Shown here: in pieces, positions 2,411-4,051 of the stretch
Numbering within the stretch: the first letter of the stretch is position 1
Layout: each line of letters starts with the position of its first letter
From: Escherichia coli
GTDB taxonomy: Bacteria; Pseudomonadota; Gammaproteobacteria; Enterobacterales; Enterobacteriaceae
Assembly (NCBI RefSeq): GCF_024223415.1
Contig: NZ_CP100507.1
Length of the DNA stretch: 4,051 nucleotides
Direction: 5' to 3' (one strand)
The notes under the pieces: generated by a model
Database searches by the model: none
What the model was told of the DNA's origin: nothing
Seen by the model: only the letters and a program-made list of their open reading frames with translations
Program-made: the position numbers and the translations under genes

Positions 2411-2734
2411 ATGACAAAACGAAGTGGAAGTAATACGCGCAGGCGGGCTATCAGTCGCCCTGTTCGTCTGACGGCAGAAGAAGACCAGGAAATCAGAAAA
2501 AGGGCTGCTGAATGCGGCAAGACCGTTTCCGGTTTTTTACGGGCGGCAGCTCTCGGTAAGAAAGTTAACTCACTGACTGATGATCGGGTACTGAAAGAAG
2601 TTATGAGACTGGGGGCGTTACAGAAAAAACTCTTTATCGACGGCAAGCGTGTCGGGGACAGGGAGTATGCGGAGGTGCTGATCGCTATTACGGAGTATCA
2701 CCGTGCCCTGTTATCCAGGCTTATGGCAGATTAG
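2411..2734 (+). CDS. mobC: MobC/MbeC-family relaxosome accessory protein (ribbon-helix-helix), 107 aa; alternative start ATG 2387 (115 aa)
   Basis: Translation MTKRSGSNTRRRAISRPVRLTAEEDQEIRKRAAECGKTVSGFLRAAALGKK... has the MobC/RHH signature (basic N-terminus, beta-strand RPVRLT, helices AEEDQEIRKRAAECG and TVSGFLRAAALG). GGAG at 2398-2401 lies 9 nt before the ATG at 2411; the upstream ATG at 2387 has no SD. Stop TAG at 2732-2734. Confidence 0.8.
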   Translation: MTKRSGSNTRRRAISRPVRLTAEEDQEIRKRAAECGKTVSGFLRAAALGKKVNSLTDDRVLKEVMRLGALQKKLFIDGKRVGDREYAEVLIAITEYHRALLSRLMAD

Positions 2735-2810
2735 CTTCCAGGGGAGAAAACTGTCGAAAACAGACGGTATGAACACTGTAAGCTCCCAAAGTGATCACCA
2801 CTCGCTTTCA

Positions 2811-2824
2811 TGCATAGCTATGCA
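2811..2824. promoter_or_regulatory. ARG-box-like 14-bp perfect palindrome within the cer accessory region (candidate ArgR site)
   Basis: tgcatagctatgca is its own reverse complement; position relative to the XerCD core matches the ArgR box of cer. Identity as an ArgR site is inference. Confidence 0.35.
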
Positions 2825-2898
2825 GCGAGCTGAAAACGATCCTGACGCATTTCCCCGGTTTTCTTAGGGTAAAACATCTCTTTTTGCAGTGTCTGTGT

Positions 2899-2923
2899 CA
2901 GAATCGCGCTGAGCGCGATTCTG
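2899..2923. repeat. 11-bp perfect inverted repeat / hairpin (cagaatcgcgc tga gcgcgattctg) abutting the XerC arm
   Basis: Seen directly; no downstream U-tract, so not a classical terminator. May belong to a cer-internal transcript (Rcd-like) or an accessory-factor site. Confidence 0.5.
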
Positions 2924-2958
2924 TGGTGCGTACAATTAAGGGATTATGGTAAATACAA

Positions 2959-3225
2959 TTGGTTAAATTACTATTGGTGAGAAATGAATATTTCAATAAA
3001 AACAATGACTTAAAAACCGTTGCTCGGTTTGACGGTAAAACCTTAAGAGATGCCTTTTCGAGAAAAATAGCGACTTTTGATGGCAAGGTTTTAAGGGATG
3101 CCTCTTTAAAAAAAGTAGCAACCTTTGACGGTCAGAATTTAAGAGATGCTAGTTCAAAAATTATCCTGAGTGCCGATGCTGAGGTTGGGATTGTTGTTAT
3201 GGCCTTTGTAGCTGAGTTGATTTGA
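2959..3225 (+). CDS. Hypothetical small protein with three tandem 16-aa repeats and a hydrophobic C-terminus; non-ATG start (TTG 2959, or TTG 2974 / GTG 2977)
   Basis: Translation ...TVARFDGKTLRDAFSRK IATFDGKVLRDASLKK VATFDGQNLRDASSKI ILSADAEVGIVVMAFVAELI. Differences between repeat copies fall largely on synonymous third positions (Ala gct/gcg/gca; Asp gac/gat; Gly ggt/ggc; Arg aga/agg; Lys aaa/aag; Thr act/acc), a coding-type pattern. No in-frame ATG and no clear SD; in-frame stop at 2950-2952 limits the 5' end. Confidence 0.5.
   Translation: MVKLLLVRNEYFNKNNDLKTVARFDGKTLRDAFSRKIATFDGKVLRDASLKKVATFDGQNLRDASSKIILSADAEVGIVVMAFVAELI
3019..3162 (+). repeat. Tandem direct repeat, 3 x 48 bp (units 3019-3066, 3067-3114, 3115-3162)
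   Basis: Conserved cores tttgacggtaaaaccttaagagatgcc / tttgatggcaaggttttaagggatgcc / tttgacggtcagaatttaagagatgct at exact 48-bp spacing. Confidence 0.85.
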
Positions 3226-3310: not shown

Positions 3311-3507
3311 AATCAGCGAAGCGGGCGAACCACGCCTGGCTCTCGCTCTTTAACAAATGGTTACGTGTATGTTGCGCAAGGAAACCGATGCCTTGTTTTT
3401 AAGGCGATCTCGCATGAGATCATGACCGGCCTGGCCGCTAATTAATGGTGAGAACGCCCCTGAGCGTGTATCAGCACTAAAAGAATAGCGACGATTGTCT
3501 GGCAATG

Positions 3508-3594: not shown

Positions 3595-3777
3595 ATGTTT
3601 ATTATCAACATCAACATTAACGTAACCAAGAGCTCTTCATCTTGTTCTGGAGACGGTCAGATGAAGAAAAAAAGAGAGGTTGGCTCTCTGGAGGCACTGA
3701 AAAAAACACAGTTTTTGTTTTCTATGTGCTTGATTATGTTTAAAGTAATAGATTACGTATCGAAACTTTTTAACTAA
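3595..3777 (+). CDS. Hypothetical 60-aa ORF lying entirely inside the a1-a2 (msr-msd) region; possibly not translated
   Basis: ATG at 3595 preceded by AGGAG (3583-3587) at 7-nt spacing; stop TAA at 3775-3777. Protein MFIINININV... is low-complexity and Lys-rich. Position inside the putative retron ncRNA argues that it may be fortuitous. Confidence 0.2.
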   Translation: MFIINININVTKSSSSCSGDGQMKKKREVGSLEALKKTQFLFSMCLIMFKVIDYVSKLFN

Positions 3778-3798: not shown

Positions 3799-4051
3799 AT
3801 GAATAAACCCAGGTTTAATGGAACTCCTGTTGCATCTTTGGATTCTTTATCTGCGATGTTAGGCATAGAAAGAAAAAGATTGGACTGGATAGTCAAGTCT
3901 GTATCGATGTCGTACAAGCAGTTTAAGGTTGAAACAGGGAAGAATAAAAAAGAAAGGCAAATTTTTGAACCCAAGAGATCTTTGAAAGGAATTCAAAAAA
4001 AAATAAATAAAGAGATTTTTGAGAAAATTGATTACCCTCATTATTTGCATG
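3799..4051 (+). CDS. Retron-type reverse transcriptase, N-terminal 84 codons (continues past the window end; see 1..887)
   Basis: ATG at 3799, open to the last base of the window. Translation MNKPRFNGTPVASLDSLSAMLGIERKRLDWIVKSVSMSYKQFKVETGKNKKERQIFEPKRSLKGIQKKINKEIFEKIDYPHYLH is colinear with the N-terminal region of retron RTs (RQIFEPKRSLKGIQ resembles the Ec86-type IYQPSRELKALQG segment as I recall it). No Shine-Dalgarno is evident, so the start is the first in-frame ATG after a2. Confidence 0.85.
   Translation, partial: MNKPRFNGTPVASLDSLSAMLGIERKRLDWIVKSVSMSYKQFKVETGKNKKERQIFEPKRSLKGIQKKINKEIFEKIDYPHYLH

Follow-up and report, generated by a model that had tools for sequence, protein, structure and literature searches.

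Positions 2745-2954 of the 4,051-nt stretch of DNA analyzed here (the window) in all likelihood constitute a cer-type XerCD multimer-resolution site of a 4-kb multicopy ColE1-type plasmid. This reading draws on an exact recombination core, an ARG box at the fixed distance seen in related sites, a homologous accessory arm, and the same orientation relative to replication as in ColE1. The site is genuine, well formed and ordinary, a known kind of element that is unannotated in the record.

The 226 bases around the site match the 4051-bp circular plasmid pCol (NZ_CP066843.1) at 100%; pCol is carried by Escherichia coli Ec-RL2-1X from a broiler caecum, and the window comprises this entire plasmid, with the start point shifted by 694 bases. 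The molecule is a ColE1-type replicon carrying a retron. RNAI (1176-1276, 94.6 bits in the Rfam scan) lies on the minus strand, so that RNAII and replication run on the plus strand, and Rop is encoded at 1933-2127, also on the minus strand. The gene for the NikA/MobA relaxase-accessory protein (nikA, 2411-2734) is transcribed towards the cer-type site, which follows right after it on the plus strand. Past the site comes a small hypothetical ORF of 88 aa (2959-3225), called in the public record with a TTG start 5 nt after the XerD arm, while the site itself carries no label there. The retron reverse transcriptase spans the window ends (3799-4051 joined to 1-887), and after its gene lies a 67-aa cold-shock-like effector (892-1095), a cold-shock-domain protein that passes the cut-off of the NCBIfam model "retron Se72 family effector" (85.2 bits vs 82). 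Besides replication functions, only nikA, the reverse transcriptase, the effector and the small ORF are annotated, which leaves a multicopy replicon without a resolvase of its own; as no recombinase gene is annotated on the 4051-bp plasmid, it would rely on host Xer.

Several other features of the plasmid were recorded. Upstream of the reverse transcriptase gene, a 17-nt inverted repeat (3358-3374 and 3612-3628, 88% complementary, 237 nt apart) sits where the repeats flanking a retron msr-msd would be expected, and the Rfam scan gave no match at this repeat. Between rop and nikA, an 11-nt inverted repeat (2213-2223 and 2242-2252, 91% complementary) occupies the expected place of the R64-like oriT of nikA plasmids, a group treated in PMC9282650. 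The ORF at 2959-3225 repeats a motif of about 17 aa (ATFDGKxLRDAS...) three times and has a sub-threshold Pfam match to a 5-fold beta-flower family (21.5 bits vs 38). In sister plasmid L014, the A run near 3000 is longer by two residues and the annotated ORF is shorter, so that the 5′ part of the ORF in the window may not be coding.

The recombination core GGTGCGTACAATTAAGGGATTATGGTAAAT (2925-2954, plus strand) occurs once in the window and is identical at 30 of 30 positions to the cer core of ColE1 as defined by experiment (NC_001371.1, 3909-3938); no match to it was found in shuffled sequence. All three of its parts agree with ColE1 cer: the XerC-binding arm GGTGCGTACAA (2925-2935), assigned by homology, the 8-bp central (crossover) region TTAAGGGA (2936-2943), and the XerD-binding arm TTATGGTAAAT (2944-2954). 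For comparison, we used 94 distinct cer-like sites obtained from a pattern scan of species-representative genomes and from the plasmids already in the comparison, with the distance between TGCATA and the XerC arm allowed to vary over 101-128 bp. The XerC arm of the window is the commonest one in this set (24/94), central regions of 8 bp are found in 20 of the 94 sites, and the XerD arm of the window in 70. The central region also holds the hexamer TTAAGG (2936-2941), which the EcoRI operon promoter PR uses as its -35 box in the central region of pMB1 cer (PMC7315355). As the source of a promoter for the cargo ORF, this hexamer was rejected: by eye, no acceptable -10 was seen at 16-18 bp downstream.

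The accessory sequences occupy 2745-2924 on the XerC side of the core (plus strand) and by homology would form the arm wrapped by ArgR and PepA. When aligned with ColE1, CloDF13 and eight other plasmids, their homology begins directly past the nikA stop codon and stops at the core, and identity over the roughly 180 bp is 90.6% with pMB9635_5, 90.0% with pCRP3, 85.6% with NTP16 nmr and 47.5% with ColE1 cer. Inside the arm, an ARG-box-like element at 2810-2827, the putative ArgR site, aligns with the ColE1 ARG box TTGCATAGGTATTCATA; it contains a 14-bp palindrome, TGCATAGCTATGCA (2811-2824), that corresponds column for column to TTGCATAGGTATTCA in ColE1. Spacerless palindromes of at least 14 bp arose in 58 of 200 shuffles, so the length alone is not rare, and it is the position and the homology of this palindrome that count. 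The exact 14-mer is the second commonest form of the box (15 of the 94 distinct sites), and its 114-bp distance from the XerC arm is the modal distance of the family. The interval falls within 113-115 bp in 94 of the 95 cer-like sites that have a second ARG half-site; pattern matches lacking that half-site, attributable to chance, scatter over 103-128 bp. Counted by hand against the E. coli ARG-box consensus, the window agrees at 10 of 16 specified positions vs 13 of 16 for ColE1, the poorer fit being a point against the cer-type reading; for PepA, we know of no usable binding consensus. Lastly, the window agrees with ColE1 in having RNAI on the minus strand and the core on the plus strand. 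All ColE1-like plasmids examined in PMC2831885 reportedly share this orientation relative to RNAII and oriV, in which the replication fork reaches the accessory arm first.

The first-pass annotation of this DNA had proposed a cer-type XerCD site with an exact ColE1-like core and a 14-bp palindrome placed like the ArgR box. The identity of the core and the placement of the box are both borne out, and the arm and the orientation are likewise as expected of a cer-type site; the likeness to ColE1 is limited to the core, because the accessory arm is closer to that of nmr than to that of ColE1.

From the anatomy, homology, spacing and orientation described here, together with mosaic plasmids that break at the core (see below), we infer that proteins bind the site and that it is active in resolution. 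On the model of the homologous ColE1 cer and NTP16 nmr, the 11-bp arms (2925-2935 and 2944-2954) would be bound by host XerC and XerD and the single ARG box (2810-2827) by host ArgR, while PepA would wrap the remainder of the accessory arm. The two copies of the site, which stand as direct repeats in a plasmid dimer, would interwrap around PepA and ArgR, and only this interwrapped topology would activate XerC, leading to one strand-pair exchange beside the 8-bp central region. Host functions would then resolve the Holliday junction into two monomers, with copy number and stable inheritance preserved. The mechanism of cer-type resolution has been reviewed (PMC5357621, PMC2655662, PMC2699498).

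Among known systems, ColE1 cer agrees with the window in its 30-bp core, in having one ARG box some 113-114 bp upstream, in its orientation relative to RNAII and in overall length, but differs in its accessory arm and in having only a weak inverted repeat beside the XerC arm, where the window has a perfect palindrome. NTP16 nmr and pCRP3, whose arms are much like that of the window, also share its layout, with the site directly after nikA/mobA and variable cargo right after the XerD arm. The nmr core reads GGTGCGCGTAA-TGAGACG-TTATGGTAAAT and thus has a 7-bp center, whereas the center in the window is 8 bp. CloDF13 parB and other cer-like sites have the same architecture and the same distance from ARG box to core (115 bp). 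CloDF13 parB resembles the window in carrying a hairpin directly before its XerC arm, with a length of 8 bp in CloDF13, and differs in that arm itself, in a 6-bp central region, and in a strong Rcd-like fold. A XerC/XerD core with two 11-bp arms is likewise found in pSC101 psi and in chromosomal dif, which has no accessory arm and is FtsK-dependent; the window is distinguished from both by its ARG box and cer core. At psi, ArcA acts instead of ArgR, and XerC and XerD both cleave (PMC5357621). The cer homologue mwr of pJHCMW1 needs ArgR and PepA, and its resolution is inefficient and dependent on osmolarity and supercoiling owing to its core and ArgR site (PMC2699498).

The search for related sites recovered 2305 plasmid records and, among 5426 complete E. 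coli genomes, 465. The allele itself, taken as identity of at least 99%, is represented by 12 plasmid records and 16 E. coli genome records. By sequence, the plasmid can be placed among the nikA-bearing small ColE1-like plasmids, with an accessory arm assignable to the NTP16 nmr lineage. This group was defined around pCERC7, NTP16 and pU302S, and its members have varied segments beside the resolution site (PMC9282650, citing Moran & Hall 2017, a paper also cited in PMC10859263). Similarity between plasmids of the group ends immediately after the XerD arm, and the site marks the backbone/cargo junction at which they swap modules. Within the allele family, we rejected cargo swapping at the XerD arm, as the right flank is still common to the sister plasmids for 16 bp. 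After these 16 bp, the sister plasmids continue with GGGGTCTGACGCTCAGTGG... (L013 1810-1860, L015 2721-2770), which we take to be a Tn3-family terminal inverted repeat; in both, a blaTEM-1 transposon follows. In the 3731-bp Klebsiella oxytoca plasmid among them, no retron is annotated.

Two comparisons bear on exchange at the site. Plasmid B of Shigella sonnei 53G combines a nikA-type accessory arm with a ColE1 right flank, the junction lying in the shared core. A twin 4051-bp retron plasmid, pMB9635_5, has 21 differences from the window, 17 of which are packed into 2777-2924, the last of them at the base before the XerC arm. This clustering points to allelic replacement of the accessory arm. 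An exchange of arms through two crossovers, at the core and in the conserved nikA region, would be expected to leave such a pattern, and gene conversion would look no different; the 17 differences between these two retron-plasmid alleles show that the accessory arm tolerates, or undergoes, considerable change. Separately, we noted cer-bearing contigs, mostly short, in assemblies labelled Cutibacterium, Varibaculum, Streptococcus, Corynebacterium, Microbacterium and similar (loci L018, L019, L025, L039, L040, L058, L062 and others). These look like contamination by enterobacterial small plasmids or vectors, not native sites.

Alongside its part in resolution, the site might also encode a functional Rcd-type checkpoint RNA, that is, a dimer-induced plus-strand transcript that starts at a Pcer-like promoter overlapping the ARG box, reaches to about the XerC arm and delays cell division. 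We regard this as doubtful; an Rcd equivalent in this allele is more likely absent or altered than present, given weak hexamers at the Pcer position, a weak predicted fold, and a hairpin that competes with the conserved helix. In the known case, rcd runs in the same direction as RNAII (PMC2831885), which would put it on the plus strand of the window, as the proposal has it, and which led us to reject a minus-strand Rcd running leftwards from the core. Rcd is 70-95 nt long (PMC5935869; PMC5357621), its expression is induced in dimers, and it binds tryptophanase and raises indole (PMC4393325).

The spacer of Pcer is 15 bp (PMC5935869), so that an empty result is expected from the standard promoter and terminator scans with 16-18-bp spacers, which found nothing in the site of the window or in ColE1 cer. 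A promoter rescan was therefore made with spacers of 14-18 bp. On the plus strand of ColE1, only two hexamer pairs with a 15-bp spacer reach at least 8 of 12 matches: TTGCAT-15-TAAAAT, which overlaps the ARG box, and TGAACG-15-TACAAT, which overlaps the XerC arm. We presume the former columns to be Pcer because an RNA starting just downstream of them, inside cer, folds very strongly. In the window, the same columns (2810-2836, plus strand) read ATGCAT (2810-2815), a 15-bp spacer, and TGAAAA (2831-2836), with 2 of 6 and 3 of 6 matches to the consensus and with neither the -11 A nor the -7 T. These poor hexamers argue against transcription from a Pcer-like promoter here, as does the empty standard scan, with the qualification that the assignment of Pcer to these columns is itself presumptive. 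Among the 94 cer-like sites, TAxxxT lies exactly 15 bp from NTGCAT in 17. The Rfam scan of the window and ColE1 found RNAI and nothing in the cer region, and it is uninformative on Rcd either way.

Some support for an Rcd-type RNA comes from the family at large, which appears to carry a conserved plus-strand RNA-like structure. RNAalifold gave no consensus structure on a plain MAFFT alignment of all 94 sites, and a structure emerged only after restriction to the ColE1-type class and covariance-model alignment. For 14 ColE1-type sequences, the consensus has a 14-bp closing helix, with nine predicted pairs in which both partners change and pairing is kept. From these sequences we built a covariance model and used it to align 30 distinct sites; in this alignment, which is fitted to the model and leans towards the structure, 89.7% of closing-helix cells are paired, 10 of the 14 pairs change on both sides, and the covariation score is 0.313, with shuffles reaching 0.158 and slid controls no more than 0.094. 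G-U pairs are also frequent in this structure. The fitting of the alignment is to be counted against the proposal. The same is true of the loss of strand asymmetry: by raw minimum free energy (MFE), 90 of the 94 sites have the more stable fold on the plus strand, but after z-scoring against dinucleotide shuffles the asymmetry is not significant (p = 0.13), and we do not use it as evidence. Fold energy goes with promoter class, again to the disadvantage of the window: the sites with a good -10 (TAxxxT) have the best-folding RNAs, averaging -39.7 kcal/mol, and those of the TGAAAN class, to which the window belongs, average only -24.4 kcal/mol.

Within the window, the covariance model matches 2833-2926 on the plus strand at 26.5 bits, compared with 37 bits for NTP16 and 73-96 bits for ColE1-type sites. 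The model alignment places the two arms of the long-range, Rcd-like closing helix at 2836-2849 and 2894-2907 on the plus strand, with 12 of 14 pairs standard. This match and these pairs favor an Rcd-type RNA, as does the good fold of the closely related NTP16 nmr RNA (-37.9 kcal/mol, z -3.9), which retains a long stem-loop that the allele in the window largely loses. The plus-strand RNA of the window is weakly folded (-25.3 kcal/mol, z -1.3 to -1.9), its minus strand folding better (z -4.5), in contrast to the strong plus-strand RNAs of ColE1 (-39.8 kcal/mol, z -4.9) and CloDF13 (-47.5 kcal/mol, z -5.5). In addition, the helix begins inside the hexamer equivalent to the -10, so that a transcript starting at the ColE1-equivalent position, about 2843, would lose the outer 6-7 pairs. 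The MFE fold of the window selects a local hairpin over the long-range helix. As the 3′ arm of that helix overlaps 2899-2909, the two are mutually exclusive, and the perfected hairpin occupies the very bases that an Rcd-type stem would need. In this allele, the palindrome that forms the hairpin probably replaces the Rcd-type long stem-loop and does not serve it.

This palindrome is the strongest local structure in the window. Its 25 bp comprise 12-bp arms, CAGAATCGCGCT (2899-2910) and AGCGCGATTCTG (2912-2923), that are fully complementary around a single central base, G2911; as a hairpin, it has an 11-bp stem and a 3-nt loop, and it ends 1 nt before the XerC arm. A perfect 11-bp inverted repeat abutting the XerC arm, as in the first-pass annotation, is thus present in full. 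No arm of 11 bp or more arose in 200 dinucleotide shuffles of the window, and at this position the window, with 11 bp, has the longest perfect stem of the 94 distinct cer-like sites, none of the others exceeding 8 bp. The hairpin has a predicted energy of -13.6 kcal/mol as DNA (z -6.9), vs -5.5 to -6.2 kcal/mol in pCRP3, pMB9635_5 and ColE1, and of -18.1 kcal/mol as RNA within 2895-2935. Across the family, the best stem before the XerC arm averages 4.5 bp, a mild enrichment over 3.55 bp in shuffles. The sister plasmids all keep the palindrome apart from its central base, G in the window and C in L013-L015, while close relatives such as nmr and pCRP3 have an imperfect 9/12 repeat in its place (CAGAATCGCGTTCAGCGCGTTTCAG in pCRP3). 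In our view, the palindrome is a weak inverted repeat, common in the family at this place, that has been sharpened in one lineage.

Whether the palindrome is a functional element in its own right was weighed in two versions, an RNA hairpin that stops or stabilizes nikA read-through transcripts ahead of the XerCD core, or a DNA cruciform that tunes XerC access. Even jointly, we consider these unlikely. The strength of the structure, an arm length that no shuffle reached, its preservation in the sister plasmids, the transcription of nikA towards it, and the weak enrichment of inverted repeats here across the family all speak for a role. For the reading as a resolution site, a perfect palindrome so close to the XerC arm, unique to this allele family, is a point against, since it could in principle extrude or otherwise disturb synapsis. 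Against a role of its own, no U or T run follows the hairpin on either strand (tails UGUGGUGCG on the plus and ACACAGACA on the minus strand), and a terminator scan of 2650-3100 found no terminator-like sites; accordingly, the palindrome is not a canonical, Rho-independent terminator. Relatives that have only the imperfect repeat, the twin retron plasmid among them, evidently survive without the perfect one. Across the family, the corresponding short helix (helix 3) shows no covariation, being 72% paired with no pair changed on both sides, and the changes that perfected the repeat could be neutral, for instance template-switch mutations of a quasi-palindrome. A related and similarly improbable reading is that the allele family exchanged the Rcd-type helix for the palindrome, giving either a natural cer site that resolves dimers with no Rcd checkpoint or a hairpin or cruciform that has acquired another function, for example protection of the XerCD core against nikA read-through or control of XerC access.

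Least probable of all is that the site is an inactive relic or scar of Xer-mediated cargo exchange that no longer resolves dimers: its place exactly at the backbone/cargo junction, the 17 positions at which its accessory arm differs from that of the twin plasmid, and its degraded Rcd-like fold would suit a relic, but core, ARG box, spacing and orientation are all intact, the same allele (at least 99% identity) recurs in 12 plasmid records from several hosts and countries, and it is established that a multicopy plasmid of 4 kb with neither partition nor a resolvase of its own depends on a site of this kind (PMC2831885).

Read as a cer-type multimer-resolution site, the element accounts for how a multicopy, retron-bearing plasmid of 4 kb can remain monomeric and be passed on stably while encoding no recombinase itself. 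The practical value of the finding lies in annotation, as the public record labels nothing at the site. Only one point goes beyond the textbook: the allele in the window keeps every recombination feature and loses the Rcd-like fold, which, if confirmed, would make it a naturally occurring test of the need for the Rcd checkpoint.
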